DNA from: a virus
Strand: one strand, 5' to 3'
DNA length: 64,000 nucleotides
IMG/VR virus record: IMGVR_UViG_3300042564_002819
Location: 266,025 to 330,024 of that record
Below, piece by piece: positions 29,585 to 64,000 of the stretch. The notes under the pieces were generated by a model that was not told where the DNA came from, ran no database searches, and saw only the letters and a program-made list of their open reading frames with translations. The position numbers and the translations under genes were made by a program. Each line of letters opens with the position of its first letter. The first letter of the stretch is position 1.

Positions 29585-29616
29585 CATCGCTCGGAATAAT
29601 AACAAAGGAAACAGAG

Positions 29617-30548: not shown

Positions 30549-30610
30549 AAATAACACTTGATCTCTTACTTTGCATAGTGTAAGCTGTAAGTATAGTAAA
30601 GGAGAATCAA

Positions 30611-30874: not shown

Positions 30875-30890
30875 ATTTTAAGGAATAAAA

Positions 30891-31541
30891 ATGGCTCTAA
30901 CTAGATTAATTGGCGACATTCATGGAATGGTAAATGACTACAAGGCCTATTCTATTGGGGATTTTAGTGGTCCTACAATTCAACTTGGCGACTTTGGAGT
31001 TGGGTTCGGTCAAAATGATTACTGGTATGAAAGCATTAATTCTTTTCATAAAGCAGGCAACCATCGGTTTATTCGTGGTAATCATGATAATCCTGCTCTG
31101 TGCAAAACTATGGACGGATACATTACAGACGGTAGCATTGAGAATGATGTAATGTTTATTGGTGGTGCTTGGAGCATCGATAATCCTAATGCACCTCCGG
31201 GTTGGTATAAGCGTACAAAGGACTATGACTGGTGGGAGGAAGAAGAACTCAGCAGTGACGAACTTGAACGTATGATTGATATCTATGCTGTAGTTAAACC
31301 ACGTGTGATGATTACACATGATTGTCCTAACATTATCAGCAGACAGATGTTTTTCAACAGTGGATTTCTAAAAGGTCCTGAATACCCCAACCGTACAAGT
31401 GCTGCGTTTACTCGTATGTTGGATATTCATCAACCCGACGAATGGTACTTTGGACACTGGCATTTTACAATGCAATACAAATACGGACGCACACTATTTC
31501 ACTGTCTTGGTGAACTAGATTACGTAGACGTAGAACTTTAA
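30891..31541 (+). CDS. calcineurin-like metallophosphoesterase
   Basis: GDIHG ... GDFG ... RGNHDNP motifs. Confidence 0.6.
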   Translation: MALTRLIGDIHGMVNDYKAYSIGDFSGPTIQLGDFGVGFGQNDYWYESINSFHKAGNHRFIRGNHDNPALCKTMDGYITDGSIENDVMFIGGAWSIDNPNAPPGWYKRTKDYDWWEEEELSSDELERMIDIYAVVKPRVMITHDCPNIISRQMFFNSGFLKGPEYPNRTSAAFTRMLDIHQPDEWYFGHWHFTMQYKYGRTLFHCLGELDYVDVEL

Positions 31542-31606
31542 GGTTGATGTTCTGTTGTGTACTTGCTATAATGCAAGTCACAACAGCACATTGAAAGAAT
31601 CTTAAA

Positions 31607-31930
31607 ATGTCGGAAACTACGTATAAATTTACTATCGGAGATGAAGGCATGGTTATTTCGGCTAGCTACGATACTGGTTGGAATGACAGTCTCAATTGTG
31701 GCGGCGTTGGCGGCTGGTCCGGAGTTATTAATAGTAACAGCGGAACATACGAATTTTACATGAAAAGTATTAAAAGTCTAAACGGCCTTGCTGTAAAAAG
31801 TAATGGAAAGGACTTTTGGACCGAGTATTACAATTCTAGCAGAGGTGTAGATGGATACACCGTGACTATCGAAGATAACACTATTACTGTTATTGCAAAT
31901 GAACCTCAATCTTTTCCATGGTGGAAATAA
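31607..31930 (+). CDS. hypothetical protein
   Basis: 107-aa ORF. Confidence 0.35.
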   Translation: MSETTYKFTIGDEGMVISASYDTGWNDSLNCGGVGGWSGVINSNSGTYEFYMKSIKSLNGLAVKSNGKDFWTEYYNSSRGVDGYTVTIEDNTITVIANEPQSFPWWK

Positions 31931-31942
31931 AGGAAAAACAAA

Positions 31943-32179
31943 ATGACTTATATGGCTACATTGTGGTATGCTGGTGCTGTGGTTATGCAACTAGGTTCGG
32001 AAGGACAAAATCTTAATGATTGTGAAATGTTAAAAACTATGATGATCACTGACATTGAACAAACATATTCCGATCCTAGTAAAATTGATGAACTTTCTAA
32101 ATCAATTTTTCCTACAAACCAGTTTGAAGTAACCTGTGAAACACAGTTGCTTGCAGTTGATGAGAAATACAAAAAATGA
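31943..32179 (+). CDS. hypothetical protein
   Basis: 78-aa ORF. Confidence 0.3.
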   Translation: MTYMATLWYAGAVVMQLGSEGQNLNDCEMLKTMMITDIEQTYSDPSKIDELSKSIFPTNQFEVTCETQLLAVDEKYKK

Positions 32180-32568
32180 CATCTAAACTTTATATTGTTA
32201 TGCGGCGTGATCTGTGGGATATGAACCCAGGCAAGGCTATGGCACAGGCTGCTCATGCTCAAGCAGACTTTGACCTGTATATGTTTGCTGATCCTAAAGC
32301 TGCAAAAAGCAAAGAAATTGCAGATGCTGTAATAGCATGGCGTGAAGATAGGCATTTTGGCACTACGCTAGTGCTGCACGAACCAGTGGATACATTTGAC
32401 AAGATTTCAATGAATGTAGCACATTGGGGCTACGTTACTGATCCTACATATCCGTACCGTAACTATTACGGTGAAGTGTTTCTTCGTAGCGAAGTTACCT
32501 GTATGTGGGTATTTGCCTACACTGAAGCAGAACTAAAATATATGAGTCAATTTGATCTTCACCGTTGA
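32176..32568 (+). CDS. PTH2-family peptidyl-tRNA hydrolase-like
   Basis: KLYIVMRRDLWDMNPGKAMAQAAHAQAD parallels the PTH2 motif [24 protein letters not shown]. Confidence 0.5.
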   Translation: MTSKLYIVMRRDLWDMNPGKAMAQAAHAQADFDLYMFADPKAAKSKEIADAVIAWREDRHFGTTLVLHEPVDTFDKISMNVAHWGYVTDPTYPYRNYYGEVFLRSEVTCMWVFAYTEAELKYMSQFDLHR

Positions 32569-32625
32569 CCTTAGGTCAGCTTGATGCTATGTTACATACA
32601 CAGAGAAACAACTTAGGCACAAAAC

Positions 32626-37329: not shown

Positions 37330-40300
37330 ATGAGATTAAGAAACCTTTTTGAAGTACAAGTGCAACCAGGTGAACGCAGAGGATTTTCGCTGCGGTTGAA
37401 GCGTCTTGAAGATTTGCAAGTAAAAATTGCAGAAATACAAAATACTATAAGCGAACTTGGTAATGTTAGCGTTCCAGAAAACTTAAAAAAACAAATGGAA
37501 GATCTTATCGATGCTGCTAAAATAGAAAAAGAAAAAATCTATGCAGAAGTATCTGACGCAGAAGTAAAAAATCCAAGAATTCAAGGAATACCTGGATCTG
37601 TCATGAAGTTACTTAGAGGCATAGAAAAAAATGCTTCAACTATAATGAACGCATACAGAAAAACTGGAAAATATCTCTATAGAGGAATCAAATCTTCCGA
37701 AGACGCACTTTATGGAAAACCTTTTGACATCAGAAAAGCCAAGGATAGTAATGTAGATTTAAGTAATGCATTAAATCAATCCTTAGCAGACCAAGGATTT
37801 AATGCTAGAAGAGACAACACTACTTTTACTTCTGGTTCTTATAATCAGGCTAGTAATTACGGTACTGTGTATATAATATTTCCTAGAGATGGGTTCTCAT
37901 TCCATTACAGTAAAAAGATAAGAGACCTTGTTTTAGATACCGGCAAGATTGATATGTTACTGGATCCCGAAATAACAGGTTATATCGAAAGTGCTATACG
38001 TTCTAACTGGAGCAATCTCAAAAACTATTTTTCTTATAAATTTAGTGGAGATAAATTCTTTACAGGTTATGAATATCAAAAAGATTTAGATGGGTTACAA
38101 CGTGCAGTAGCAGACGGTGTGCTTCCACAAGAATTTGCAAAATATAAGACTTTTTATGATCTAGTTGATCCTGCAAAAGTTATAGCTAATTTTCAATACA
38201 ATCAAACTGATCTCGACAGTGCTATAACTTCCGAACATGAAGTCATGATTACAGGACCGTATTATGCTGTTAAAACAGAGTCCTTTCAAGATTATATTGA
38301 CAAATATATTAAAATGACAGCAAATGGTGAATTTGATGTCACTCCAGATAACAAAAAAGAAAAAACTACTTTAAATCAAAAAATACAATCTATAGTAGGC
38401 GGTTCCGCGCCTGAGTTTGCAATAGGAGATTGGGTGCAGCATAAGTACGAAGGATTTAAAGGTGAAGTTGTTGACTATTACCATACCAATGACTTTGTTC
38501 AAATTAAAGATTATGCCGGAAAACTAAAATTAGTCAATAAGAAAAATATTGATAAAATTAAAACTCCTGAGATGCCCGACTACCAGCCCGGCGATAAAGT
38601 TTATCTAAGAACAAAAGACACAGAATGGGAATATTATAATAATAAAAAATACAAGGTAGTAGACTCTGATAAGTTTACCGTAACAGTTCAAAAAGGCAGT
38701 TACGACACCACAATTACATTACCTAAATTGTTAACCGAACCTGCTCCTAAATTTGATACCAAAGATCCAAGTGTAGGAGACACAGTTCATGTTACCAAGG
38801 GCGATTTTGAAAACATGTACGGAACTATTACATATGTTTCTAGTTACAGTAAAGATATTGATGTTGACTTCGGAGACAGCGATTCGCACACTGTTCAAAA
38901 AGGATCTTACGAAGTTATTGATCCTGCAACAAAACCTGCAGATGCAAACTCTATTGCATCAAAGTTTAAAGAAGGTGATTACGTTAGAATCTCTGACGAC
39001 GGGTTTGATTACAGTGGTCTTGTAGCGGTAATTAATAAACCTGGTTTATCAAAATCAAGAGTATATCCGTTCGGCGAAAAAAGTTATGCTTTAAGTATAA
39101 AAAATTCTAGATTAAAAGCTATTGATGAAGATGAATTTAAAAAACAATCGTTTAGCATAACAGATCAAGTAGTTGTATCTGGCGGCAAGCATGATGGAAA
39201 GAGTGGAAAACTTAATTATGTAAGCTTTGATGGAACTATGGAAATAGTTGTCAGTAGTGGTAACACCATAGAAGTACCCGGAAAATATGTTTTTAATCAA
39301 AACGTAAATGGTTCTCCTGAAAATAACGAGAATAAAGAAACAATTAAAAAAGGTGATTTTGTAAAAATCTCAGACGACTCGGACTTGTTCCCAGGTTCTG
39401 TAGCAAAAGTAGTTGTAAAGAATTCCGGCGAAAAATCTACAATATTAGTAAACAACGACAACAATCTCGATTATATTATTGATACAAAATATCTAACCAA
39501 GATTGATGAAAATGAATTTAACAATAAAAAGCTGTCAACCGGCGACGAAGTCAATGTCACAGACGGATATTATAAAGGAAAAACTGGAAAAATAAAATCG
39601 TTTGGGACTGATGGTCCTGTAAGAGTTGATATAACTTCGCCGTCCACAGGGGATACATTTACAATTAAGGTACTTCCACAATACTTGGAAAAAATAAATC
39701 AAAGCAGTGACGACTTAATTGATTTAATGGATCTTGAGTTTGAACCGATGGACGAGCCTACTGATTTTAAAAATAATGAAACTAAAAAATTTAAAGTCGG
39801 CGACAGCGTAAAAGTAATTAATGGTAAACACAAAGGAAAAACTGGAAAAATAAATTACCTATATACGTATACAAAAGAAGCGTATGTTGACTTCGACGGT
39901 GAATATCACGACATTGAGTTAAAAGACTTAGAGTTAGACAAAGAAGAATCAAAAACTGATAGCAATTTTAACAAAGACGAATTAAAAAAGCTAATCAGTC
40001 AAGGAAAAGAAAAAGGTTTTATAACCTATAATCAACTAAACGATGTAGTGCCTTCGGACAAAGTTACTTCTGAAGAAATTGAAGATATAATGGATATGTT
40101 AAATGAATTAGGAATCAATTTAGTTGATGCTGAAAAAGACTCGGCTCCATCAGGTGAAACTCCACAGGAATTACAAGCAAGAATAAACGATCCAGATACA
40201 AAAGCGTTCCTTAAACAAGCATTTGCAGATCCTGATGTAAAAGAACTAGTGAGTAATATAATCAAAAAGAAAATTATAACAACCGACGACATTGATAATA

Positions 40301-40389
40301 TATCTGTTCTAGTAGGATATGACAAGTATTTGTTTGGCATAAAACCATATATCGAACTTAAAGGCGTTGTATACCAACCTACTACTTGA
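37330..40389 (+). CDS. multidomain protein: Alt-like ADP-ribosyltransferase candidate, about 8 KOW-like repeats, C-terminal sigma70 region 1.1-like domain
   Basis: ART R-S-E candidates YLYRGIK / TFTSGSY / SEHEVMITG; repeats GDxVxVxxGxxKGKxG (e.g. GDEVNVTDGYYKGKTGKI, GDSVKVINGKHKGKTGKI); C-terminus ELKKLISQGKEKGFITYNQLNDVVPSDKVTSEEIEDIMDMLNELGINLVD versus E. coli RpoD QLKLLVTRGKEQGYLTYAEVNDHLPEDIVDSDQIEDIIQMINDMGIQVME. Confidence 0.55.
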   Translation: MRLRNLFEVQVQPGERRGFSLRLKRLEDLQVKIAEIQNTISELGNVSVPENLKKQMEDLIDAAKIEKEKIYAEVSDAEVKNPRIQGIPGSVMKLLRGIEKNASTIMNAYRKTGKYLYRGIKSSEDALYGKPFDIRKAKDSNVDLSNALNQSLADQGFNARRDNTTFTSGSYNQASNYGTVYIIFPRDGFSFHYSKKIRDLVLDTGKIDMLLDPEITGYIESAIRSNWSNLKNYFSYKFSGDKFFTGYEYQKDLDGLQRAVADGVLPQEFAKYKTFYDLVDPAKVIANFQYNQTDLDSAITSEHEVMITGPYYAVKTESFQDYIDKYIKMTANGEFDVTPDNKKEKTTLNQKIQSIVGGSAPEFAIGDWVQHKYEGFKGEVVDYYHTNDFVQIKDYAGKLKLVNKKNIDKIKTPEMPDYQPGDKVYLRTKDTEWEYYNNKKYKVVDSDKFTVTVQKGSYDTTITLPKLLTEPAPKFDTKDPSVGDTVHVTKGDFENMYGTITYVSSYSKDIDVDFGDSDSHTVQKGSYEVIDPATKPADANSIASKFKEGDYVRISDDGFDYSGLVAVINKPGLSKSRVYPFGEKSYALSIKNSRLKAIDEDEFKKQSFSITDQVVVSGGKHDGKSGKLNYVSFDGTMEIVVSSGNTIEVPGKYVFNQNVNGSPENNENKETIKKGDFVKISDDSDLFPGSVAKVVVKNSGEKSTILVNNDNNLDYIIDTKYLTKIDENEFNNKKLSTGDEVNVTDGYYKGKTGKIKSFGTDGPVRVDITSPSTGDTFTIKVLPQYLEKINQSSDDLIDLMDLEFEPMDEPTDFKNNETKKFKVGDSVKVINGKHKGKTGKINYLYTYTKEAYVDFDGEYHDIELKDLELDKEESKTDSNFNKDELKKLISQGKEKGFITYNQLNDVVPSDKVTSEEIEDIMDMLNELGINLVDAEKDSAPSGETPQELQARINDPDTKAFLKQAFADPDVKELVSNIIKKKIITTDDIDNISVLVGYDKYLFGIKPYIELKGVVYQPTT

Positions 40390-41843: not shown

Positions 41844-42377
41844 ATGAGCGAACCCGTCTGCACTGTAATGGTTGGCTTGCCTGCTATGGGCAAGTCCACT
41901 CTTGTTAAAGGCATGTGGAAAGATGAAAGCACTTTCATCTACAGCACTGACGATCTTCTTGAGGCCGCTGCTAAAGAACTTGGCAGCACTTACAATGAAG
42001 TGTTTGAAACGCTAATCAAGTCAGTTACTGAGGCAGCAAACGGATCTCTCGATGTTGCCGTCAAGAACCGTCAAGACATCATCTGGGATCAAACCAACTT
42101 GGGTGCAGGCAAGCGTCGTAAAATTATTAATCGTATGCGTCAGGCAGGTTATCAAGTTCGTTGTGTTTGTATCGTTCCTCCTGAAGCAGGACACATCAGT
42201 AATCTCAAGGACTGGAAGTATCGTTTGGCTAACCGCCCTGGTAAAACTATTCCAGATGAGGTGTTGACAAACATGTATCGTTCGTTTACACTGCCTACAG
42301 TAGAGGAAGGGTTTGATATGATTACCTTCTATAACATGCACGGTGCCCTGTTGGGTGTTGACTATGGAGAAGAATAA
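41844..42377 (+). CDS. P-loop polynucleotide kinase-like (Pnk kinase domain-like)
   Basis: Walker A VGLPAMGKSTLV, 177 aa, directly upstream of the RNA ligase. Confidence 0.5.
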   Translation: MSEPVCTVMVGLPAMGKSTLVKGMWKDESTFIYSTDDLLEAAAKELGSTYNEVFETLIKSVTEAANGSLDVAVKNRQDIIWDQTNLGAGKRRKIINRMRQAGYQVRCVCIVPPEAGHISNLKDWKYRLANRPGKTIPDEVLTNMYRSFTLPTVEEGFDMITFYNMHGALLGVDYGEE

Positions 42378-43534
42378 TGCACTACCGTTTTCCTGAGATC
42401 CGTCACATTAGTGATGTGCTTCCGCACATCGAAGGTCGTGAGGAATTTGTTGTAGCAGAGCGTGAAGGCTACACTGTGATCAACTACGTGGTTGCAATGG
42501 CCGACACCTTTGACATGACTGGAGCAGATGACTTGGGCGGTGCAATCCGTCGTGAATGTCGTGGCTTGATTTTTGACCGTGATGGTAACATCATGAGCCG
42601 TCCGTTTCACAAGTTCTTCAACATCAACGAGCGTGAAGAAACTCAAGCACATCGGTTGGATCTCAGTGTTTTGTTTGACCATGTGATCATGGAAAAGATG
42701 GATGGTTCGATGATCCGTCCTATCTTAGTCGATGGACACTTGCGTCTTGCTACCAAGATGGGTGTAACTGAAGTGGCCATGCAGGCCGAAACTTGGCTAG
42801 CTGCTCAGGACCCTATGTTGAAGAAGTGGATGGCTATCATGATGGCACAGGGTATTACTCCGATCTTCGAGTGGGTAAGCCCGTTCAATCAGATTGTGTT
42901 GGCGTATGAAACCGCTGATCTTGTGCTATTGGCACTGCGTAACAACATCACTGGCGAATACCTTGATGTCGGCGATCCAAAAGACGACAAACTGTGGACT
43001 GTGGTTCCGCAGTATGGTTCAGTAGAAGGCAACCTTGGTGACTATATTGCTCGTCAGCGTGGTGCAGAAGGTCGCGAAGGTGACATCATTCGCTTTGCGG
43101 ATGGGCATATGGTCAAGGTCAAGAACGACTGGTATGTGCGTATTCACAAGACTGTGGATCGCATCGTGTTCGACCGTAACATTGTTGCTCTTATCCTCAA
43201 CGAGGAAGTGGACGACGTGTTGCCGATGTTGCCGCAGGTTCAAGCAGATCGTGTTCGTGTATTCGAGCGTCGATTCGCCGAACGGCTTCACGCTGTGGTT
43301 GAAAACTACGAACGCTACTGGAACACTGTAGTAGCATCGGGTCTTGACCGCAAGCGTTATGCTCAAGAGTGGATGCCTACTATTAAGGGCAACGATCCGT
43401 TTGCTACTAACTACGTGTTTGGTCGCTTTGCTGGTCGAGATGGTCGTCAAATGATTCTTGATCATATCGAAAAGAGCATCACTACCAACGTTCGTTGGGA
43501 TGAATGTGCAGCGTGGATGGGGATGGGTCCGTGA
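42377..43534 (+). CDS. rnlA: RNA ligase 1
   Basis: ECRGLIFDRDGN..RPFHKFFNINE..MEKMDGSMI (KxDG nucleotidyl-transferase lysine) and DGHMVKVKNDWYVRIHKT parallel T4 Rnl1 ECRGIMFEMDGE..KEDGSLV..DGSHFKIKSDWYVSLHST. Confidence 0.8.
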   Translation: MHYRFPEIRHISDVLPHIEGREEFVVAEREGYTVINYVVAMADTFDMTGADDLGGAIRRECRGLIFDRDGNIMSRPFHKFFNINEREETQAHRLDLSVLFDHVIMEKMDGSMIRPILVDGHLRLATKMGVTEVAMQAETWLAAQDPMLKKWMAIMMAQGITPIFEWVSPFNQIVLAYETADLVLLALRNNITGEYLDVGDPKDDKLWTVVPQYGSVEGNLGDYIARQRGAEGREGDIIRFADGHMVKVKNDWYVRIHKTVDRIVFDRNIVALILNEEVDDVLPMLPQVQADRVRVFERRFAERLHAVVENYERYWNTVVASGLDRKRYAQEWMPTIKGNDPFATNYVFGRFAGRDGRQMILDHIEKSITTNVRWDECAAWMGMGP

Positions 43535-50317: not shown

Positions 50318-51772
50318 ATGACAAACGTACTAAATCTACTAACTGCTATTATTCGCACTGACAGCTATAAGCTGAGCCAGTGGCTACAATATCCAAAGGA
50401 CACTGTCCGTATTAGTTCATACATCGAAAGTCGTGGTGGCGAAGACGAATCGGTATTCTTTGGTCTACAAGCGTTCATTAAACAGTATATGATGACACCG
50501 ATTACTGTAGCAGATATCAATCGTGCTGAACTTATTGTAAAAGCACACGGACTGCCTTTCAACAGAGAAGGTTGGGAAATCATCGTCAAAGAATACGGCG
50601 GCATTCTGCCGTTGGAAATCGAAGCTGTTCCTGAAGGTACCGTTATGGAGACCCATAACGTGCAAGTGCAGATTGTTAATACCGATCCACGCTTGTTCTG
50701 GTTGACCTCATATGTTGAAACTGCAATGCTTCGCGGCATTTGGTATCCTTCAACTGTTGCTACAAAGAGCCGTAAAATGAAGAAACTCATTGCTGCTGCT
50801 CTTGAACTAACTAGCGACGTTCCTGTTAACGATCAAATCATGTTCAAGCTACACGACTTTGGTGCTCGTGGTGCAAGTTCTTCTGAAACTGCAATGCTTG
50901 GTGGTATGGGTCACCTTGTTAACTTTATGGGTACTGACACTGTGGAAGCACTTGTTGGTGCAATGGAATATTACAACACAGACTCTGTACCTGGGTTTAG
51001 TATTCCTGCTAGTGAACACTCAACAATCACTAGCTGGGGTGGTCCTGCTGGAGAAGTTGTAGCATTTGAAAACATGATCAATACATTTGCCGGTCCCGGT
51101 AAACTGTATGCTTGTGTTAGCGACAGCTACGACATTTACTCTGCCGCACGTGACTTGTGGGGCGGCGTTCTAAAAGAAAAAGTCATTGCTGCCGGCGGCA
51201 CCTTGGTGGTACGTCCGGACTCAGGTGATCCTACTACAGTTCCGATTGAAGTTATTGGCATCCTTATGGATCGCTTTGGATACACTGTTAACAGCAAAGG
51301 CTACCGAGTACTTCCTCCTTACATCCGTCTAATCCAAGGAGATGGTATCAACGAAAAAACTTTGCCTAAGATCTTGTCAAACATGGTTGAAGCAGGTTAC
51401 AGCATTGATAACATTGCATTTGGTATGGGCGGTGGCTTGCTACAAGCGTGGAACCGTGATACACTCAAGTATGCTATGAAAGCTAGTGCTAGACAGGATA
51501 CTGAGGGTGTATGGCACGATGTCTTTAAAGATCCGATCTCAGACCGCGGCAAAGTGTCTAAAAAAGGTCGTCTTGGATTAGTTTATGAGTGCGGGATTGG
51601 AAACTGCGGTTATAGAACTCTTCCAAAGTCGGTTGCTGACAAAAAAGGCAACCTACTGAGAACTGTATATCGCAACGGTGAACTCTTAATTGAGGACACT
51701 TTTGAAAATATTCGCAATCGTGCAAAACTTAAAGTGGAGGAATACACTCATGATGTCGTTGAAAGATATTGA
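50318..51772 (+). CDS. nadV: nicotinamide phosphoribosyltransferase (NadV-like)
   Basis: 484 aa; type II PRTase features (FGARGASS, GMGGGLLQ); adjacent to natV as in KVP40-type phages. Confidence 0.75.
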   Translation: MTNVLNLLTAIIRTDSYKLSQWLQYPKDTVRISSYIESRGGEDESVFFGLQAFIKQYMMTPITVADINRAELIVKAHGLPFNREGWEIIVKEYGGILPLEIEAVPEGTVMETHNVQVQIVNTDPRLFWLTSYVETAMLRGIWYPSTVATKSRKMKKLIAAALELTSDVPVNDQIMFKLHDFGARGASSSETAMLGGMGHLVNFMGTDTVEALVGAMEYYNTDSVPGFSIPASEHSTITSWGGPAGEVVAFENMINTFAGPGKLYACVSDSYDIYSAARDLWGGVLKEKVIAAGGTLVVRPDSGDPTTVPIEVIGILMDRFGYTVNSKGYRVLPPYIRLIQGDGINEKTLPKILSNMVEAGYSIDNIAFGMGGGLLQAWNRDTLKYAMKASARQDTEGVWHDVFKDPISDRGKVSKKGRLGLVYECGIGNCGYRTLPKSVADKKGNLLRTVYRNGELLIEDTFENIRNRAKLKVEEYTHDVVERY

Positions 51773-55957: not shown

Positions 55958-56103
55958 ATATGAACACGAAAGTTTTAAGAGACTATAAGGCACTACTAAA
56001 AGACTACAACGAAGGCAAAATTAGTTACAAAGAATTTGTTGATCAAACACTTCCGCTGTGGAATAAATTAAACAACTTGTTCGAAAAAGATTAAAAAAGC
56101 AGT

Positions 56104-56131
56104 TGACATAGAGTAAAACATACACTATATT
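56104..56131 (+). promoter_or_regulatory. sigma70-like promoter of the tRNA operon
   Basis: TTGACA-N16-TATATT. Confidence 0.55.
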
Positions 56132-56149
56132 AACTAAACAAACAAAAAA

Positions 56150-56188
56150 TAAAACGTAACGCAAGTTACACGCTCTTTGACAATTTAG
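56150..56188 (+). promoter_or_regulatory. boxB-hairpin plus boxA-like antitermination motif
   Basis: GTAAC-GCAA-GTTAC hairpin then CGCTCTTTGACAATTTAG (E. coli rrn boxA is GCTCTTTAACAATTTA). Confidence 0.5.
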
Positions 56189-56677
56189 ATTTGTTGTTTA
56201 CATCGTAAGATGTAGTAAACAACGCTCACTTAGACGCAAGTCGATAATAGTGGGGGTAAGTAGAGAATGACTCTACTTACACGTATTAACTGGTAGCTGG
56301 TTCGATTCCGGCGTAGAGTCTAGGTGACTATGAAAGGTTTGATTCCTTTGTACTACTGGTGTAGCAAATTGGACGACAGTCCGCCAAGTTAGTACGTGTA
56401 AGTAGAGTCGAGCAATTGAATTATTCGATGCTGTGAAGTATTTCTAACAGCATTTGATGATTGTGCCATGTGGTAAAAAGATTGCTTACAGCTAGAAAAA
56501 AGCTGACTACAATAATACACGGTAATAGAAAAGACCAAATCTTTTTTAACATCGTGTATTTATAGAAAAAACTAGTGCAGGAGGATAACTCTGTAAGTCA
56601 CAAGAACAACGGTGCCGCATGACTCAATTGCGGTTAAATTACCCGAGTAGTGCCGGGCAGAGCCAAACACACAATGT
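56189..56677 (+). ncRNA. about 490-nt structured leader/ncRNA preceding the tRNA array
   Basis: no ORF; direct repeat GTAAGTAGAG x2; tRNA-like mini-helix GACTCTAC..GCTGG-TTCGATT-CCGGC-GTAGAGTC. Confidence 0.35.
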
Positions 56678-56753
56678 TCCTCGTTAGCTCAGTTGGTAGA
56701 GTATTTGACTGTTAATCAAAGTGTCGCTGGTTCGAGCCCAGCACGAGGAGCCA
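56678..56753 (+). tRNA. tRNA-Asn(GTT)
   Basis: perfect acceptor TCCTCGT/ACGAGGA; loop CTGTTAA. Confidence 0.8.
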
Positions 56754-56822
56754 AAATTGAGAAGGGGATAAACACGGCAGTCTCATTGCGTAGCAACGGT
56801 GCCCTTTCTTTTAGAATAATGC

Positions 56823-56898
56823 ATCGGTATAGCTCAGCTGGTAGAGCAGCGGTCTCCAAAACCGCGTGTCCTGGGTTCGAATCCTAGTGCCGGTGCCA
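56823..56898 (+). tRNA. tRNA-Trp(CCA)
   Basis: GGTCTCCAAAACC anticodon arm as in E. coli Trp. Confidence 0.75.
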
Positions 56899-56905
56899 AA
56901 AATAC

Positions 56906-56997
56906 GGATTGATGGGTGAGAGGCTTAAACCAGCAGATTGCTAATCTGTCGTACCTTGTAAAGGGTACCGAGGGTTCGAATCCCTCTCGATCCGCCA
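56906..56997 (+). tRNA. tRNA-Ser(GCT)
   Basis: class II; loop TTGCTAA; variable arm CGTACCTTGTAAAGGGTACCG. Confidence 0.75.
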
Positions 56998-57008
56998 GAA
57001 TAAGATAC

Positions 57009-57083
57009 GGGCTGTTGGTATAGTTGGGAACACAGTAGCTTTGCAAGCTTCAATCACCGGTTCGAACCCGGTACGGTCCACCA
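57009..57083 (+). tRNA. tRNA-Ala(TGC)
   Basis: anticodon arm GTAGC-TTTGCAA-GCTTC (one mismatch); T arm ACCGG-TTCGAAC-CCGGT. Confidence 0.6.
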
Positions 57084-57090
57084 AAATAAT

Positions 57091-57112
57091 GCGGGATTAA
57101 CTCAGTGGTAGA
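57091..57112 (+). pseudogene. duplicated 5' fragment of tRNA-Val (acceptor plus D arm)
   Basis: GCGGGATTAACTCAGTGGTAGA versus GCGGAATTAGCTCAGTGGTAGA at 57547. Confidence 0.5.
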
Positions 57113-57142
57113 TAAATACTTTAAATAGGAGATACTCTACCA

Positions 57143-57556
57143 ATGGCTAAAACGTTCAACTGTTTAAATTGTAGTAAAGAAAGTAAATGGAGTTATAGCA
57201 GCACTAACAAGTATTGCAGCGGCGATTGCTTTCAAGAACACAAATGGAAAACTGTAAAAAAACTTGAAGTAGAAGCAGGGTTAGTCAATGACGGAAGCCC
57301 TGCGTTAAAAAAATACCTTGTTGAAACAAAAGGTGAATGCTGTGAAGAGTGCAAAGTTGGCACTGTTTACAACGGAAAGCCATTAACACTAACTGTTGAT
57401 CATATTGATGGTAATAGTGATAATAACTTTCCAGGCAACCTTAGACTTTTATGTCCTAATTGTCACAGTCAAACTGAAACATACAAAGGACGAAACAAAA
57501 AGAATAGTGCTCGTTCTCGATATATGAGAAAGTATAGAGATAATTTGCGGAATTAG
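57143..57556 (+). CDS. HNH homing endonuclease with N-terminal zinc finger
   Basis: CLNCSK..CSGDC finger; HNH core DHIDGNSDNNFPGNLRLLCPNCH; stop codon lies inside the tRNA-Val 5' end. Confidence 0.7.
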   Translation: MAKTFNCLNCSKESKWSYSSTNKYCSGDCFQEHKWKTVKKLEVEAGLVNDGSPALKKYLVETKGECCEECKVGTVYNGKPLTLTVDHIDGNSDNNFPGNLRLLCPNCHSQTETYKGRNKKNSARSRYMRKYRDNLRN

Positions 57557-57621
57557 CTCAGTGGTAGAGCAGGGGTTTTACACACCTCAGGCCGGGAGTT
57601 CGACCCTCTCATTCCGCACCA
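57547..57621 (+). tRNA. tRNA-Val(TAC)
   Basis: perfect acceptor GCGGAAT/ATTCCGC; loop TTTACAC. Confidence 0.75.
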
Positions 57622-57732
57622 AGTTTAGACTGGATATAATCACCCCTTGTGAGGGTGGCCCAAGGACTCAGTAACGAGATACAGCGAAGGGTTGTTGGTC
57701 AAGGCTGCAAACAGCCCAGTCTAAAGCAATAC
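57622..57732 (+). ncRNA. about 110-nt structured spacer RNA
   Basis: closing helix TTTAGACTGG/CCAGTCTAAA; internal hairpins CACCC-CTTGTGA-GGGTG and GGCTG-CAAA-CAGCC. Confidence 0.3.
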
Positions 57733-57821
57733 GGACACTTGGCAGAGATGGATTATTGCACCGGTCTTGAAAACCGACGAACCGCAAGGTTCCCAGGGTT
57801 CGAATCCCTGAGTGTCCGCCA
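57733..57821 (+). tRNA. tRNA-Ser(TGA)
   Basis: class II; perfect acceptor GGACACT/AGTGTCC; loop CTTGAAA. Confidence 0.8.
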
Positions 57822-57897
57822 TAAGCACACTAGCATCAGGCTAGTCCAGACCGTAAGGTTAACGGTGACAAGCGGGGAGAGACCCGCACAAAAATAC

Positions 57898-57974
57898 GGC
57901 CTGTTAGTCGAGTGGTTTAAGATGCCTGCCTGTCACGCAGGAGATGATGGGTTCAATTCCCATACAGGTCGCCA
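57898..57974 (+). tRNA. tRNA-Asp(GTC)
   Basis: anticodon arm CCTGCCTGTCACGCAGG identical to E. coli tRNA-Asp. Confidence 0.8.
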
Positions 57975-58126
57975 AATTGAAAGGAAGGCTCATAGTTTAC
58001 GTTTAGCCCGTTACGACGGTTTGGGCGGAAAATGGTTGAGTCACGGCACGGGCGGGTCGGGGGCTGCGTGACGGCATTGAACTATGAAGCAGTTGTCGGT
58101 CTGCGTTAACAAACACCGTCAAAATT

Positions 58127-58200
58127 GCGGGTATGGTGTAGCGGTAACATGCGAGCCTTCCAAGCTCTTGTCACGAGTTCGAATCTCGTTACCCGCTCCA
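58127..58200 (+). tRNA. tRNA-Gly(TCC)
   Basis: GCCTTCCAAGCT arm as in E. coli Gly2; perfect acceptor GCGGGTA/TACCCGC. Confidence 0.75.
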
Positions 58201-58225
58201 ATTTATCCGTATGTGAGAGGACAAT

Positions 58226-58492
58226 ATGAAAACAGAAGATGAAAAGAGAGAATTTTACGAGCGTTGCTCCTCTATGTTAGGAATAGCTCACGTTTACAAC
58301 ACGCCAGTTCCACGACGCAATAGATGGAACGCAAGACGACTGGGCAACGGACGTTATCCAGGATTTGGACTAATACAGTGCTACGGAAACGGAGCAAGAG
58401 TAGTTAGTCGACAAGGAACACGTATGTTTTATACATACGAAGCAGTTTATGAATATTTGCAGATTGTGCTTGACGCAACTGCAAAAGCGTAG
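58226..58492 (+). CDS. hypothetical basic protein
   Basis: 88-aa ORF inside the tRNA array; GAGAGG RBS. Confidence 0.35.
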   Translation: MKTEDEKREFYERCSSMLGIAHVYNTPVPRRNRWNARRLGNGRYPGFGLIQCYGNGARVVSRQGTRMFYTYEAVYEYLQIVLDATAKA

Positions 58493-58507
58493 TATAAAAA
58501 CTATAAC

Positions 58508-58583
58508 GCCCTTATAGCTCAGCTGGTAGAGCATCTGATTTGTAATCAGAGGGTCGGCGGTTCAAGTCCGTCTGGGGGCACCA
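58508..58583 (+). tRNA. tRNA-Thr(TGT)
   Basis: anticodon arm TCTGA-TTTGTAA-TCAGA. Confidence 0.8.
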
Positions 58584-58590
58584 AAATTAT

Positions 58591-58666
58591 GTCGCGTTAG
58601 CAAAAGGTTAATGCGTGTCCTGTGCAAAGGACAAGGACGGTGGTTAAACTCCCCGACGCGACTCCA
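58591..58666 (+). tRNA. tRNA-Cys(GCA)
   Basis: perfect acceptor GTCGCGT/ACGCGAC; arm GTCCT-GTGCAAA-AGGAC. Confidence 0.7.
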
Positions 58667-58672
58667 AATAAT

Positions 58673-58754
58673 GCGGATGTGGTGTAATGGTAGCCACGCT
58701 GGTCTTAGAAGCCAGTGCGTAAGCGTGAGAGTTCGAGTCTCTCCATCCGCACCA
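58673..58754 (+). tRNA. tRNA-Leu(TAG)
   Basis: class II; loop CTTAGAA; paralogous to the Leu(GAG) at 30791. Confidence 0.75.
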
Positions 58755-58798
58755 AAATATTTCTTATCTTAAAAAGTTTTAAATTTAGAAAGATTAAC

Positions 58799-59242
58799 AT
58801 GCAATTTTATGAAAAAGTAACTTTTTTACCAAGCATTCCAGAAGGTTTAATAAAACCTTTAGATATAATCGAATCGATGCCGAATGTTTTTCCAGATCCG
58901 GATTACGCTCATACTTATGCCAGCTATAAGGCAAATGACGATTTACAAGCTTGGGCACAAAGTTATTTTGACTTTCCTGTACTTGCAAGATATCAGGTAA
59001 TTAAACAACAATTGCCTATTCATGTTGACGTTGGAATTGTAGGAATAAAATATAACTACCTTATTAGCAGGGGTGGTGACGATGTAAAAACAAGATGGTG
59101 GGATAGTGTAGAAAATCCTTCAAAAATACTTTTTGAAACTACTTCGCCATTACGTGTGTGGCACAGCTTAAACATCGAAGTGCCACACGATATAACAGAA
59201 ATTAGTTATCCTAGAATTAGTGTAACTATAAGAAAAAAATAG
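58799..59242 (+). CDS. hypothetical protein
   Basis: ORF from the first ATG after tRNA-Leu. Confidence 0.35.
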   Translation: MQFYEKVTFLPSIPEGLIKPLDIIESMPNVFPDPDYAHTYASYKANDDLQAWAQSYFDFPVLARYQVIKQQLPIHVDVGIVGIKYNYLISRGGDDVKTRWWDSVENPSKILFETTSPLRVWHSLNIEVPHDITEISYPRISVTIRKK

Positions 59243-59270
59243 TAATAACTTTTTTAAAGAAAAATACTGT

Positions 59271-59346
59271 TGGGAAGTAGCTCAATTGGTAGAGTAGCGG
59301 ACTTTGAATCCGTTGGTTGGTGGTTCGAATCCACCCTTCCCAGCCA
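59271..59346 (+). tRNA. tRNA-Gln(TTG)
   Basis: U1-A72 start TGGGAAG/CTTCCCA as in bacterial Gln; loop CTTTGAA. Confidence 0.75.
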
Positions 59347-59352
59347 AGATAT

Positions 59353-59429
59353 CGGAGTATAGCACAGCCTGGTAGTGCGATGGTTTTGGGTACCATAGGT
59401 CGAGGGTTCGAATCCTTCTACTCCGACCA
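59353..59429 (+). tRNA. tRNA-Pro(TGG)
   Basis: C1-G72 acceptor CGGAGTA/TACTCCG; D arm GCACAGCCTGGTAGTGC; loop TTTGGGT. Confidence 0.75.
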
Positions 59430-59646
59430 CGATTAAACTGTTGATCTAACCTCGGACTCGAACAAATAGCCATAGGCTTAGGCAGGTAGTACGGCGGATT
59501 AGTGTTAGACAACATTCGGACCAAGTAATCCGTGAGGTCCAGCTATTAGTGATGGCGGGGACGAACAAGCGGCTGATTTGGTATCAGTCGTGAGGCGGTA
59601 AGCTGCACCATAGGTGTCGTAGGCCGGGACTTGTTCAATTTATTAT
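59430..59646 (+). ncRNA. about 215-nt structured spacer within the tRNA array
   Basis: no ORF; GC-rich paired segments (GGCGGATTAGTG..CCAAGTAATCCGTG). Confidence 0.25.
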
Positions 59647-59724
59647 CTGGGTATAGCTCAGTCTGTGAAGAGTGCTCGCCTTGGAAGCGAGAGGTCGCTG
59701 GTTCAAATCCAGTTACCCAGACCA
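59647..59724 (+). tRNA. tRNA-Pro-like(TGG), second copy
   Basis: C1-G72 acceptor CTGGGTA/TACCCAG; arm CTCGC-CTTGGAA-GCGAG. Confidence 0.6.
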
Positions 59725-59731
59725 AAATAAC

Positions 59732-59816
59732 GCGGTGTTGGACAAGATGGATTGTCAGAGGATTCTAAACCTTAGTAGGCAGGATCGTTACCTGTACGCC
59801 GCACCAATACACACAT
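59732..59816 (+). tRNA. non-canonical tRNA-like (possible pseudogene or suppressor)
   Basis: acceptor GCGGTGT/ACGCCGC and CCA present, but T loop ATCGTTA and anticodon arm irregular (loop region ATTCTAAA, could present TCT or CTA). Confidence 0.3.
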
Positions 59817-59919
59817 ATGATGCCGTAGCCCGACGCTGGTATGTGTGAAACCTAAATATCGGGCATGTAATTTAATAAAGGAAAGAAAAATGTCGTAGAT
59901 TGAATATGCTTGTAAAGAT

Positions 59920-60456
59920 GTGGTGTTCCACTTTAACAAAAAACACTTGGAAGATGAAACTATTCCGATGTGGGTGATTAAGTTTCGAGGCGAAACCTAT
60001 TATGTAAATCATGTCGAATGTAGTGTTCCGTGGAGTACAAAAGAAACGCCTGATAACAATCACACTAAAGGCAGTATCAAAGTCAAGGATTGTTTAGTTA
60101 TTATTGATGATGAGAACTGTGCTAACATTCGTGTGTTAACTCCAGCAGATCGTTTGCGTCTTACTAAAGAACAAACTGTAAGAGTTATTACCGAGCAAGG
60201 AGCAAAACTGCGTACTGCACTACAGAACATGGCACATGGTCCGATTAAGTTAGCAGGTGGAGGATGTGGCACTACTTGGTATATCACAGATATTCCCAGT
60301 AAGAAACATTTAACAATACTACAACTACAGATTCCTTATATTAGGCAATTGATGCCCAATGAGGATTATTACAAGAAATATGATCAAACATCTTCAGATA
60401 CTGAATGGTTAGATGATGATGACGACTACGAGTGGGAAGACCTTTATGAAAATTGA
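59920..60456 (+). CDS. hypothetical protein
   Basis: 178-aa ORF with acidic C-terminus. Confidence 0.4.
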   Translation: MVFHFNKKHLEDETIPMWVIKFRGETYYVNHVECSVPWSTKETPDNNHTKGSIKVKDCLVIIDDENCANIRVLTPADRLRLTKEQTVRVITEQGAKLRTALQNMAHGPIKLAGGGCGTTWYITDIPSKKHLTILQLQIPYIRQLMPNEDYYKKYDQTSSDTEWLDDDDDYEWEDLYEN

Positions 60457-60625
60457 AGTGCCTCACTCGTTACTAAAAGAAGTCTGTGCTACAATTCGTC
60501 AATTCAAATTAAGGCACGGGCCATTCTACAAACTGTTAAATAGCTATAGGATATATTTGTATCCAAGTAGTAAATTAAGTTTGTTTTTGATTAAACATTC
60601 TAGCACTGTTACAGTGCTAGAATAA
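60413..60625 (+). CDS. hypothetical small protein (doubtful)
   Basis: 70-aa overlapping ORF. Confidence 0.2.
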   Translation: MMMTTTSGKTFMKIEVPHSLLKEVCATIRQFKLRHGPFYKLLNSYRIYLYPSSKLSLFLIKHSSTVTVLE

Positions 60626-60626
60626 T

Positions 60627-60701
60627 GCGGGCGTAGCTCAGGGGTAGAGCGTCACCTTGCCAAGGTGAATGTCGTGGGTTCGAATCCCATCGCCCGCTCC
60701 A
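60627..60701 (+). tRNA. tRNA-Gly(GCC)
   Basis: perfect acceptor GCGGGCG/CGCCCGC; arm TCACC-TTGCCAA-GGTGA. Confidence 0.8.
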
Positions 60702-60719
60702 ATTGTTGAAAGATATTGT

Positions 60720-61301
60720 ATGAGTAAAATAGAGCACTTTTATCATCTTCCGCACTTCGAAGAAGAATGGTTTACATATTCGGCTTTATATTCTGATATG
60801 GTAGCTAAATTTCCATCCGGAAGTAAGTTTGTTGAAGTCGGTTGTTGGAAGGGAAGATCTGCTGCTTATATGTGTGTAGAAATTGCTAATTCAAAAAAAG
60901 ACATTGATTTTTATTGTGTTGACTTTTGGCATGTATCAGCAGAGCATGAAATAGAAGAACCCCATCTAAAAAATTTGTATGAAATTTTTCTTTCTAATAT
61001 GAAACCAGTTGAAGCTTTTTATAAGCCAATGAAAATACCGTCGTCTGATGCTGCAAAAAAATTTAAAGACGAAAGTTTAGATTTTGTTTTTATTGATGCT
61101 GGACATCAATACGATGAAGTAAAAGATGATATTCTTGCATGGTATCCAAAAATTAAAAAAGGTGGCATACTAGCAGGACATGATTTTTATCCAACTGAGC
61201 CAACTTGGGGAGATGTTTCTAAAGTAGTAAACGAACTTTTTCCAAATAATTATGAAGTTTTAATAGAACAAAGTTGCTTTCTAGTAAATAAGCCGGTATA
61301 G
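60720..61301 (+). CDS. class I SAM-dependent methyltransferase-like
   Basis: KFVEVGCWKGRSAAYM (motif I-like) and FVFIDAGHQYDEV (motif IV-like). Confidence 0.5.
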   Translation: MSKIEHFYHLPHFEEEWFTYSALYSDMVAKFPSGSKFVEVGCWKGRSAAYMCVEIANSKKDIDFYCVDFWHVSAEHEIEEPHLKNLYEIFLSNMKPVEAFYKPMKIPSSDAAKKFKDESLDFVFIDAGHQYDEVKDDILAWYPKIKKGGILAGHDFYPTEPTWGDVSKVVNELFPNNYEVLIEQSCFLVNKPV

Positions 61302-61365
61302 CTGAGTGGTTTAGCAGCTGATTAGTAATCAGCTGACGGGAGTTCGATTCTCTCTACCGGCACCA
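61292..61365 (+). tRNA. tRNA-Thr-like, anticodon reads AGT (A34)
   Basis: acceptor GCCGGTA/TACCGGC (Thr-like); perfect anticodon stem GCTGA/TCAGC with loop TTAGTAA. Confidence 0.6.
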
Positions 61366-62230: not shown

Positions 62231-62992
62231 ATGAATTATCACATAAAAAACTTTATTATCCCTATACATGTCTTATTTTTAGTATCACTAATTGGTATGT
62301 ATTTAAATATAATCGATTTTCATATTTGGTTATTTTTAATAGGGTGGACTTTGATCTATGGGCTAGGTCTTGTTGTAGGATTTCATAAATTGTTATCCCA
62401 TAGCTCTTTTAAAACAAACAAATACATATCTTATGTGTTAGCTTACTTAGGATGCTTAGGAATTAGCGGATCACCTATATGGTGGGCTGCTATACATAGA
62501 GGACATCATCATGCTCATACTGAGACTGAAAAAGACCTTCAAAGTCCACGTCGTGGATGGCTTACATCTTACATAGGTTGGCAGTTTGGTGAAGAAACAA
62601 GTAAAATAAGTTTAAAGTATGCATCTGATTTAATAAAAGATCCTTTTTATCTTTTTTTACACAAGAATTATAGATTAGTTGTTTGGAGTACAGTGATTAT
62701 TGTTGGTATGTTGTCACCATCTGTTGCAGTTTCATTATTAATATTTCCGATGATTGCAGCACACCATGGAGAAAATATTACCAATTCATTTGGTCATAGC
62801 AGGTTTGCTGGTTACAGAAATTTTAATACCAACGACGACACTATAAATAACCCATTGTTAGCATTTATAACTTGGGGTCAGCTTTTGCATAACAATCATC
62901 ATGCTAAGCCAAATAACGATAGTTTTGCCATTAAATGGTTTGAATTTGATCCAACTTCTCCTTTTGTATGGATTTTAAAAAAACTAAAATAG
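62231..62992 (+). CDS. membrane fatty-acid desaturase (acyl-lipid/acyl-CoA Delta9-type)
   Basis: three His boxes HKLLSH, HRGHHHAH, HNNHHAKP and four TM segments. Confidence 0.7.
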   Translation: MNYHIKNFIIPIHVLFLVSLIGMYLNIIDFHIWLFLIGWTLIYGLGLVVGFHKLLSHSSFKTNKYISYVLAYLGCLGISGSPIWWAAIHRGHHHAHTETEKDLQSPRRGWLTSYIGWQFGEETSKISLKYASDLIKDPFYLFLHKNYRLVVWSTVIIVGMLSPSVAVSLLIFPMIAAHHGENITNSFGHSRFAGYRNFNTNDDTINNPLLAFITWGQLLHNNHHAKPNNDSFAIKWFEFDPTSPFVWILKKLK

Positions 62993-63049
62993 TTACAATA
63001 TAAACATTTTTCTGTAACAGAAAAAAAATAAAAAAGTTGAAAAAAGTGG

Positions 63050-63079
63050 TTGACCTTTGAGGCAACATGCACTATATTA
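63050..63079 (+). promoter_or_regulatory. sigma70-like promoter
   Basis: TTGACC-N18-TATATT; shares CACTATATTAAC with the promoter at 56104. Confidence 0.5.
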
Positions 63080-63083
63080 ACTA

Positions 63084-63127
63084 CATAAGCAGCAAATGTG
63101 TTGCTTACACGCTCTTTGAAAATTTAG
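63084..63127 (+). promoter_or_regulatory. boxB-like hairpin plus boxA-like motif
   Basis: AAGCAGCA-AATG-TGTTGCTT hairpin then CGCTCTTTGAAAATTTAG. Confidence 0.5.
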
Positions 63128-64000
63128 TAACTTAACTGCAATAATCAACAGTTTAGCGAAAGGCTAAAGATTGTGGTTGTGCTGAGTAATTAACAGTTTA
63201 AATCAGCAAGTGATGCGTGATTAGGTAAACTGTTGTTTATTGCAGTTTTTAAGATGGGCGGCTTAGCGTCCACGTAAGGGTAAGTGCGGTAACGCACCCA
63301 AAGGCAGGTTTCCTATAAACTGCCGCCAGCAATGGTCCACCTAAGCAAGCCTGAACTAAGGTTGACTCGGTTTAACCCGAAAGCAACCTCCGTCCTTAGG
63401 CGGGCGGTAGGCAGTAAGTTAGAGTTGTAGTCCGAAAGGATAGGCACAGAGCCGGTCGGTGAGTGCTAAGAGGCTGTGGTGGCTGAACTGCAACATACCA
63501 AACTAACGAATGCTGAAGGTTAACAGGTAGCTACACTGTCTGAGCCCGCAAGCAAAGGCATGGTAGCATCACAAGAGTGGAAGGGTTAGGCCCCGGATAC
63601 TTGAAGTGACGTTGAGTAGCTCGCAAGGCAAAAGACAGTCGGTGTGTTGTATACTGTATCTAACAAGGTATGGTGCAACTGGGACAGCACATCGAAGTAG
63701 GTTCGCAATATTGCATAACGGTAATGCAATCGTCTTATGAAACGATGGATTGTAGGTTCAACTCCTACTATTGAAACAAAAGCGAAAGACTGTCCCGGTA
63801 CGTTGTGAAAGGTGGTTAATGCCACACTCGCAAGAGAATGTGGTCTACGGATGCTCGCAAGGCTGATGTAGTTGTTCGGAAAGATAGCGTAAGGGTTTAG
63901 CGACTCTGAACTGCTCGCAAGGCAGACGAAGGATAGAAGGACGAGTAGCAACGTGCGACGAGAGAAACGCCACTCTCCAAAAAAGGCACCACTGGGAGAT
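63128..64000 (+). ncRNA. large structured ncRNA (partial, runs off window end)
   Basis: more than 870 nt with no credible ORF; many GNRA/GAAA-type loops (CCGAAAGG, CCCGAAAGCAACC, CGCAAG); 10-mer CTCGCAAGGC repeated 3 times plus CCCGCAAGCA. Confidence 0.5.

Follow-up and report, generated by a model that had tools for sequence, protein, structure and literature searches.

The non-coding stretch that closes the window, meaning by window the whole 64,000-nucleotide stretch of viral DNA analysed here, almost certainly encodes the GOLLD RNA of a large tRNA-rich phage, on the + strand and from position 63250 to beyond position 64000. Judging by homology, the full RNA would measure about 855 nt, and about 102-110 nt of its 3'-end would lie beyond 64000. 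The GOLLD family reportedly goes back to Weinberg et al. in 2009; the family and its embedded pseudo-tRNA are already known, and the window copy adds nothing categorically new.

Identification of the GOLLD RNA and of its relatives

When the whole window was scanned with Rfam at the default gathering thresholds, only 31 tRNA hits were obtained, one of them at 63704-63776, and no GOLLD was reported. GOLLD was detected once the gathering threshold had been replaced by an E-value threshold: in this cmscan search, the RF02032 model matched positions 63639-64000 of the + strand with 136 bits (E=1.4e-37). A preliminary description of the region had proposed a large ornate phage non-coding RNA, possibly of the GOLLD/ROOL class, and this match narrowed the proposal to GOLLD, not ROOL; the accession RF01998 that had been given there for GOLLD was wrong, as the Rfam family is RF02032. 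The match covered model positions 1-336 of 416 and was flagged as cut at its 3'-end by the window edge. The curated (gathering) cut-off of Rfam for GOLLD is 150 bits, and the window copy stayed below it as a result of the window edge, which falls at model position 336; the 80 model positions left outside contribute about 55-60 bits to the scores of the closest relatives.

The RNA had previously been placed at 63128-64000. Its location at the window edge was correct, but the conserved RNA body begins at about 63250 (TAAGATGGGCGG), and positions 63128-63249 turned out to be a leader hairpin that varies within the clade.

All the 16 uncut relatives, namely 14 uncultured-virus contigs and the cultured phages Phaeobacter MD18 and Sinorhizobium Phosso, scored above the 150-bit cut-off (161-234 bits), and the 14 contigs were 60-88% identical to the window where complete. 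An exact match to the last 39 bases of the window was found in seven IMG/VR viral contigs. Contigs L001, L002 and L004-L007, which are uncut, reached 190.5-195.8 bits over model positions 1-416, and L003, which is cut at its own 5'-end, reached 150.7 bits and matched the final 250 nt of the window at 98.8% identity. L003 and the other six closest contigs run on for ~100 nt to model position 416, supplying the 3'-end that is missing from the window. Nine further viral contigs, 60-80% identical to the window, were collected by a motif search with the 5' domain; eight of them (L010-L012 and L015-L019) passed the cut-off at 160.7-234.1 bits and the ninth was cut by the contig end. L014, which duplicates L010, was not given a scan of its own. 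The GOLLD copies of MD18 and of Phosso, a phage of 469 kb, scored 169.6 and 186.6 bits, respectively. Both copies are unannotated, save for a 'tRNA-Arg' in MD18.

All the relatives were IMG/VR viral contigs or cultured phages, and they carried tRNA arrays. Megablast of positions 40000-64000 against cultured phages gave tRNA-sized matches only and no close cultured relative. When bacterial genomes were scanned for a host or prophage, the matches were a short MAG fragment from Lake Mendota that carries a tRNA array (L020) and three loci lacking GOLLD, and no host emerged.

Conserved structure of the 5' and 3' domains

The RNA would be composed of three parts, a structured 5' domain of ~390 nt, a linker with a pseudo-tRNA and the family-defining 3' domain. 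The 5' domain occupies positions 63250-63638 (+ strand) and contains 22 helices, including an invariant GTCCGAAAGGAT hairpin at 63430-63441. The GOLLD family is known to have a less conserved 5' region (PMC12286853), and positions 63250-63638 are this variable 5' domain of the family. The alignment of 15 sequences gave 99 consensus pairs, 51 of which showed compensatory changes; 98.3% of the cells were paired, versus 30-40% when the 3' partners were slid by 1-3 columns, and none of 500 shuffles reached the observed values. In the window copy, 98 of the 99 consensus pairs were intact.

When the consensus was threaded onto the cultured phages, 68 of 98 pairs (69%) could form in MD18 and 69 of 90 (77%) in Phosso, versus 27-46% in the slid controls, which indicated that this architecture is shared with these two GOLLDs of alphaproteobacterial phages. 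An nhmmer search with the 5'-domain profile gave no match in the structurally solved env-38 GOLLD, and threading env-38 onto the consensus gave 50% pairing versus 33-40% in the slid controls, so that the helices of the domain may or may not correspond to P1-P13 of env-38. In a pairwise local alignment, the motifs in common with env-38 were few in extent, all of them short. Since the 5' domain has no detectable sequence similarity to that of env-38, the stoichiometry of the env-38 cage is not transferable to the window RNA.

In the 3' domain, the cmscan alignment assigned the first conserved hairpin (63639-63700, + strand) to model positions 1-62, and compensatory changes in this hairpin were visible among close relatives. 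The core of the domain (63778-64000, + strand) corresponded to model positions ~115-336, is cut by the window end and was nearly identical in the seven closest contigs, with three variable positions. RNAalifold predicted 73 pairs for the 3' domain of 15 sequences and 52 of them were supported by compensatory changes. The covariation that the preliminary description had suggested looking for was thus found in both domains, and also in the arms of the tRNA-like insert described below; structural conservation was strong and no conserved ORF was found.

The tRNA-like insert in the linker

The variable linker of the window copy holds a tRNA-like insert at 63704-63776 (+ strand). The insert has D, anticodon and T arms; its anticodon loop measures 8 nt (CTTATGAA) and CCA is absent. 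It scored 44.8 bits on the Rfam tRNA model (cut-off 29) and was reported by ARAGORN as 'tRNA-???' with a 4-base anticodon. The insert falls in the variable stretch of the GOLLD model and was found at the same place in all 17 copies compared. In the D, anticodon and T stems of these copies, 11 of 14 pairs were compensatory and 98.7% of the positions were paired, versus 32-54% in the slid controls. The acceptor stem had 4-6 of its 7 pairs in all 17 copies, with the mismatches at the terminal end (5/7 in the window, with mismatches at 1:72 and 2:71). No CCA followed the insert in the 17 copies, its 3' side leading directly into the conserved GOLLD AAAAGCGAAAGACUG.

Of the 16 distinct copies, six had a UCU-type anticodon loop, those of MD18 and Phosso among them (CTTCTAA in five and CGTCTAA in MD18). 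The remaining anticodon loops were of the UGA type in four copies and of the GCU, UAG, GUU and CUU types in one copy each, and 8-nt loops were found in three copies including the window. The body of the insert was of class I throughout, and the UGA and GCU 'Ser' versions were devoid of the long variable arm of bacterial tRNA-Ser. Taken together, the covarying arms, the incomplete acceptor stem and the varying anticodon loop indicated that the shape of the insert has been selected and decoding has not. We class the insert as a pseudo-tRNA, which had been described before in GOLLD. The ancestral insert of the clade appears to have been of the Arg(UCU) type, with drift in its anticodon loop.

The GOLLD linker sometimes holds a tRNA (PMC12286853, PMC12990946); in the GOLLD of Mycolicibacterium a tRNA-Phe sits in J13/15, and 'inhibited storage' of this embedded tRNA has been proposed (PMC12990946). 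It could be argued from this proposal that GOLLD is mainly a precursor delivering a working tRNA, in which RNase P and RNase Z would excise the insert while the surrounding structure times or protects its release. The maintenance of the cloverleaf arms by compensatory changes and the canonical Arg-UCU-type loop of six distinct copies agree with such a role, but we consider it unlikely, because neither the acceptor stem with its terminal mismatches nor the missing CCA in 17/17 copies suits a working tRNA, and neither do the 8-nt loops, the variety of anticodons on one class I body or the 'Ser' types without a long variable arm. Furthermore, the window already carries a normal tRNA-Ser(UGA) gene and two tRNA-Arg genes for those codons, and the pseudo-tRNA gene inside the Mycobacterium GOLLD gave no separate signal in northern blots (Behra et al. 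2019, PMC6582537). The features of the insert therefore speak against its being delivered as a working tRNA in this clade, and are compatible with a structural or a bait role. The insert was accordingly rejected as a functional embedded tRNA, given its 4-6 acceptor pairs, the lack of CCA and the unstable anticodon loop.

Integrity of the RNA, motif content and coding potential

The window copy could also be a decaying GOLLD remnant, that is, a pseudogene without function in the phage, as its score under the gathering cut-off and the aberrant anticodon loop of its insert might suggest. We regard this as very improbable, because the truncation at model position 336 accounts for the low score, what is visible of the 3' core hardly differs from that of seven independent contigs, the 5' domain has lost only one of its 99 consensus pairs, and the promoter and the boxA-like motif described below are intact.

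The region had been described as dense in GNRA-type motifs. All of them were present at their coordinates, TCCGAAAGGA at 63431, CCCGAAAGCAACC at about 63376, CCCGCAAGCA at about 63545 and CTCGCAAGGC three times (63620, 63854 and 63914), but strict GNRA tetraloops closed by three pairs were only mildly enriched (5 versus 2.2 +/- 1.4 in dinucleotide shuffles) and the 'CGCAAG' motifs corresponded mostly to CGCAA pentaloops in the Rfam structure.

No frame of the region is coding, as had been proposed from the first inspection. On the + strand there were no ORFs longer than 44 aa, and the longest ORF, of 121 aa, was found on the minus strand (63586-63951). A protein gene on this strand, with the RNA structure being incidental, might be imagined from the fact that the window and every relative have an open stretch of 79-197 codons there. 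However, the substitutions in the 121-aa ORF against 16 relatives were distributed evenly among the codon positions (344/379/325), without position bias; indels of lengths not divisible by three interrupted the ORF (those of 1, 2 and 4 nt were frequent), and the open stretches of the relatives lay in other frames and positions from one relative to another. As the + strand is purine-rich, composition alone explains why the minus strand is poor in stop codons, and the covariation of the RNA helices was overwhelming, so that we give practically no weight to a minus-strand gene. The 121-aa ORF was rejected as a gene on the grounds of its even substitutions, frame-breaking indels and shifting frames.

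Finally, another class of large RNA (ROOL, HEARO, OLE or a group I or group II intron) or a fragment of rRNA, which share with the window RNA only the general resemblance of being large, GNRA-rich, phage-borne and beside tRNAs, is hardly conceivable here, as the permissive Rfam scan of 62950-64000 (E<=10) gave no match to these models or to rRNA and, besides GOLLD and tRNA, only four chance-level hits (E 2.8-9), and the scan of the whole window at E<=0.05 yielded nothing beyond GOLLD, hits of the tRNA clan and four sub-threshold plastid-UTR matches, which overlap tRNA genes on the opposite strand. The comparison with the Rfam models of these classes, proposed in the preliminary description together with the exclusion of rRNA, thus left GOLLD alone, and the identity is specifically that of GOLLD.

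Promoter and leader region

A sigma-70-type promoter was identified at 63050-63078 (+ strand), composed of a -35 hexamer TTGACC (63050-63055), a 17-nt spacer and a -10 hexamer TATATT (63073-63078), with 10 of 12 consensus matches in the promoter scan; the transcription start is predicted near 63085. Directly after the predicted start, RNA folding gave a leader hairpin of 9 bp with a 4-nt loop (63086-63107, + strand). A boxA-like element, CGCTCTTTGAAAATTT, was found at 63110-63125 (+ strand). Its core GCTCTTTGAAA starts 33 nt after the -10 hexamer and matches 10 of the 11 positions of the boxA consensus GYTCTTTAANA (PMC5725501), with G for A at position 8; this consensus is gamma-proteobacterial and may not be that of the host.

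The extended promoter TTGAC-N15-CACTATATTA had two exact matches in the window, at 56103 and 63050, and when two mismatches were allowed one weaker site was added (3 matches versus 0.17 expected). A second copy of the boxA-like motif was located at 56171-56186, behind the second promoter copy, where GCTCTTTGACA starts 41 nt after the -10 of the duplicate promoter. This copy of the promoter and boxA cassette at 56103 heads the main tRNA array of the window (56678-61365). The boxA 11-mer alone was not rarer than chance in the window (2 GYTCTTTRANA matches found versus 1.3 expected), and for this reason its reading as a boxA rests on position and conservation; the only two matches in the window each follow an exact copy of the promoter.

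Among the relatives, the promoter was kept upstream of GOLLD in L005, L006, L007, L010, L014 and L018, and its -10 part in L012. An equivalent leader hairpin, with sequence changes, was found in L005, L007, L010 and L012, and the boxA-like motif was kept upstream of GOLLD in L005-L007, L010, L012-L015 and L017, the L015 copy (GTTCTTTAACA) agreeing with the boxA consensus at every position. All three elements were conserved even though the intervening leaders of the relatives were otherwise unrelated. The boxA-containing promoter claimed in the preliminary description was supported at the level of sequence conservation, as a promoter-like site with a boxA-like motif, both conserved in relatives.

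A clade-variable leader element was found at 63134-63247 (+ strand); it consists of a 70-nt insert, with a GAAA-type hairpin in it, closed by a stem of ~22 bp (63134-63155 paired with 63226-63247). The fold z-score was -3.3 for positions 63085-63255. The relatives had a different sequence at this element, again with a long closing stem around a variable insert.

Transcription of the GOLLD RNA most likely proceeds from the sigma-70-type promoter at 63050-63078. In rRNA leaders a hairpin is followed by boxA (PMC10250234), and boxA-dependent Nus complexes shield long untranslated RNAs, such as rRNA and CRISPR arrays, from Rho (PMC7665894). By analogy, the boxA-like element may recruit host Nus factors, and the long untranslated transcript, probably together with the downstream tRNAs, would then escape Rho termination as rRNA operons and CRISPR arrays do. 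The arrangement resembles that of the leaders of rRNA operons and CRISPR arrays, with a promoter, a hairpin and a GCTCTTT-type boxA before a long untranslated structured transcript (PMC7665894, PMC5725501, PMC10250234), and the leader hairpin of GOLLD has the position of boxB in the rRNA-operon leaders. Unlike them, the GOLLD element is phage-encoded, with no boxC identified and with the one mismatch at position 8 to the E. coli-type consensus.

Genomic neighbourhood

The window (37-48% G+C) contains 30 tRNA genes, located upstream of GOLLD, in agreement with the tRNA-rich neighbourhood noted earlier; the internal tRNA-like element had been missed at that time. A fatty-acid desaturase gene lies directly upstream of the GOLLD promoter. 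The protein genes of the window comprise phage-type accessory genes, such as that of a T4 Rnl1-like RNA ligase, and also include those of a NAMPT, a CHASE2-cyclase and a protein of 1019 aa in which KOW motifs and a sigma-70 region 1.1 are present.

On the 3' side, contig L003 had no terminator-like site on the + strand between GOLLD and the downstream tRNA-Met and tRNA-Leu genes. The two terminator candidates found on this strand were located inside the tRNA-like insert and beyond the tRNA-Met and tRNA-Leu genes. The lack of a terminator before these tRNAs in L003 suggested that GOLLD is probably the first gene of a non-coding operon.

Discussion

The GOLLD structures solved by cryo-EM are a 14-mer of env-38 (PDB 9MEE), a 12-mer of the full-length Streptococcus agalactiae RNA (9L0R) and a 10-mer of its 3' domain (9LMF) (PMC12286853, PMC12990946). 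These three constructs, from two RNAs, form closed cages free of protein; the caps are made by the 5' domains and the rings by the 3' domains, and the linker is in the interior (PMC12286853, PMC12990946). The window RNA shares with the solved GOLLDs the same order of a large 5' domain, a linker and a 3' domain, a predicted length of more than 800 nt and the location in a tRNA-rich region of a phage (PMC12286853, PMC12990946). It differs from env-38 in that its 5' domain is not alignable by sequence, has the architecture found in MD18 and Phosso and is preceded by the extra clade-variable leader hairpin. By homology with the solved structures, 10-14 copies of the RNA would be expected to assemble by themselves, with no protein, into a closed homo-oligomeric cage, with the 5' domains as caps, the 3' domains as rings and the pseudo-tRNA linker presumably facing the cavity.

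The GOLLDs of Mycobacterium and Mycolicibacterium, as reported in PMC6582537 and, for Morgado et al. 2020, as cited in PMC12990946, are likewise located amid tRNA genes and have in their linker a tRNA-like gene unlike a normal tRNA. They belong to horizontally acquired tRNA arrays of bacterial chromosomes or plasmids and have a Phe-type insert, whereas the window copy is viral and its insert would be of Arg(UCU)-type ancestry. ROOL is likewise a large phage-associated RNA found near tRNAs, which forms RNA-only cages with an inward variable linker (PMC12286853), but its sequence and fold are unrelated to those of the window RNA.

Expression of GOLLD rises in lytic growth in a Lactobacillus brevis prophage, according to the work cited in PMC12286853, and from this literature the RNA of the window may be expected to be expressed in lytic growth too. 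The published ideas on the function of GOLLD include the encapsulation of tRNAs, ribosomes or other partners and the 'inhibited storage' of an embedded tRNA. Our best guess, which is speculative, is a role in the tRNA and translation programme of the phage, in which the cage might hold or present the tRNA-like module or enclose a translation-related partner.

A more specific form of this idea, which we put forward as a long shot, is that the pseudo-tRNA is the cargo or bait of the cage: 10-14 tRNA-shaped modules, with no usable acceptor end and with anticodon loops that change fast, would be displayed in the cage or released from it and would offer a multivalent decoy or sponge to a host factor directed against tRNA; this factor could be an anticodon nuclease, or a defence protein that binds or modifies tRNA. 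A decoy would fit a phage that has about 30 tRNAs and a T4 Rnl1-like tRNA-repair ligase and, if this were true, the turnover of the anticodon loop across the clade would reflect an arms race and not neutral drift.

We found no account in the accessible literature of three refinements provided by this clade: the promoter, hairpin and boxA leader common to GOLLD and the tRNA operon, the drift of the anticodon loop relative to the Arg-UCU outgroups, and the covarying 5' architecture in the contigs, MD18 and Phosso. For genome annotation, the lesson is that a GOLLD copy cut by a contig edge drops under the Rfam gathering score, and that default scans miss such copies.

Very few natural RNAs are known to form cages without protein, and GOLLD is one of them. 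The clade is well defined, with 24 copies in total, including those of two cultured and genetically tractable phages, MD18 and Phosso. It offers as handles a 5' architecture that differs in sequence from that of env-38, an ever-present pseudo-tRNA with a preserved shape and a drifting loop, and a conserved leader. The fact that this leader is common to GOLLD and to a phage tRNA operon suggests that non-coding operons of phages may borrow the rRNA antitermination machinery of the host.

Leader of the tRNA array and tRNA-shaped elements

The promoter that precedes the large phage RNA GOLLD (Rfam RF02032) in this window, TTGAC-N15-CACTATATTA, was found a second time, as an exact copy, at the head of the tRNA array (56103-56132), where it was accompanied by the boxA-like motif GCTCTTTGACA (56172-56182). 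The non-coding leader that follows this motif (56187-56677, 491 nt) folded far better than its shuffled versions (z=-7.5) and holds a stem of about 20 bp around a cloverleaf-like element with the T-arm GCTGGTTCGATTCCGGC, for which neither ARAGORN nor Rfam gave a call.

A small element was seen to recur across the non-coding operons of these phages, both in L003 (470-575), a viral contig whose GOLLD is near-identical to that of the window, and, by alignment, in the GOLLD leaders of four related contigs (L010, L012, L014 and L018). It consists of a tRNA-shaped body within a long closing stem, with a canonical T-arm (GGTGGTTCRATTCCAC) and an 'anticodon' loop of only 3 nt, and is placed either within the GOLLD leader or between GOLLD and the adjacent tRNAs. 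None of the tools recognised it. This recurrent element may be a tRNA-like processing signal, serving as punctuation.

Two calls in the tRNA arrays of the window were also unusual. At 58591-58666, which scored 43.2 bits in Rfam, ARAGORN called a 'tRNA-???' whose anticodon has 2 bases, and a weak Rfam tRNA match (35 bits) at 23095-23176, without an ARAGORN call, was matched slightly better by the tRNA-Sec model (37.3 bits, under the cut-off of that model).

In the cultured Phaeobacter phage MD18, a two-piece (permuted) tmRNA of the alphaproteobacterial type, with the tag peptide ANTNAAPMEMAIAA, was located about 210 nt downstream of GOLLD (L008, 3214-3648). The GenBank record of this phage has no annotation for either RNA, and labels the pseudo-tRNA of its GOLLD as tRNA-Arg.

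Stretch with only small ORFs, and accessory genes

An 11-kb stretch (21650-32630) contained scattered tRNAs, small overlapping ORFs on both strands and no ORF of at least 220 aa; its G+C content was raised, with a maximum of 0.48 at 26-28 kb, and the Rfam scan of this stretch detected nothing except tRNAs.

Several unusual accessory genes are encoded on the + strand: a fusion of a CHASE2 sensor with an adenylate/guanylate cyclase domain (9927-11966), a 1019-aa protein combining KOW motifs with sigma-70 region 1.1 (37330-40389), a nicotinamide phosphoribosyltransferase (50318-51772) and, immediately upstream of the GOLLD promoter, a fatty-acid desaturase (62231-62992). The same strand encodes a T4 Rnl1-like RNA ligase (42377-43534; Pfam RNA_lig_T4_1, 1.5e-27, plus a T4_Rnl1_C domain). 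In T4, the Rnl1 enzyme mends tRNAs cleaved by an anticodon nuclease of the host, and the presence of such a ligase is noteworthy given the 30 tRNAs and the GOLLD RNA carried by the same phage.
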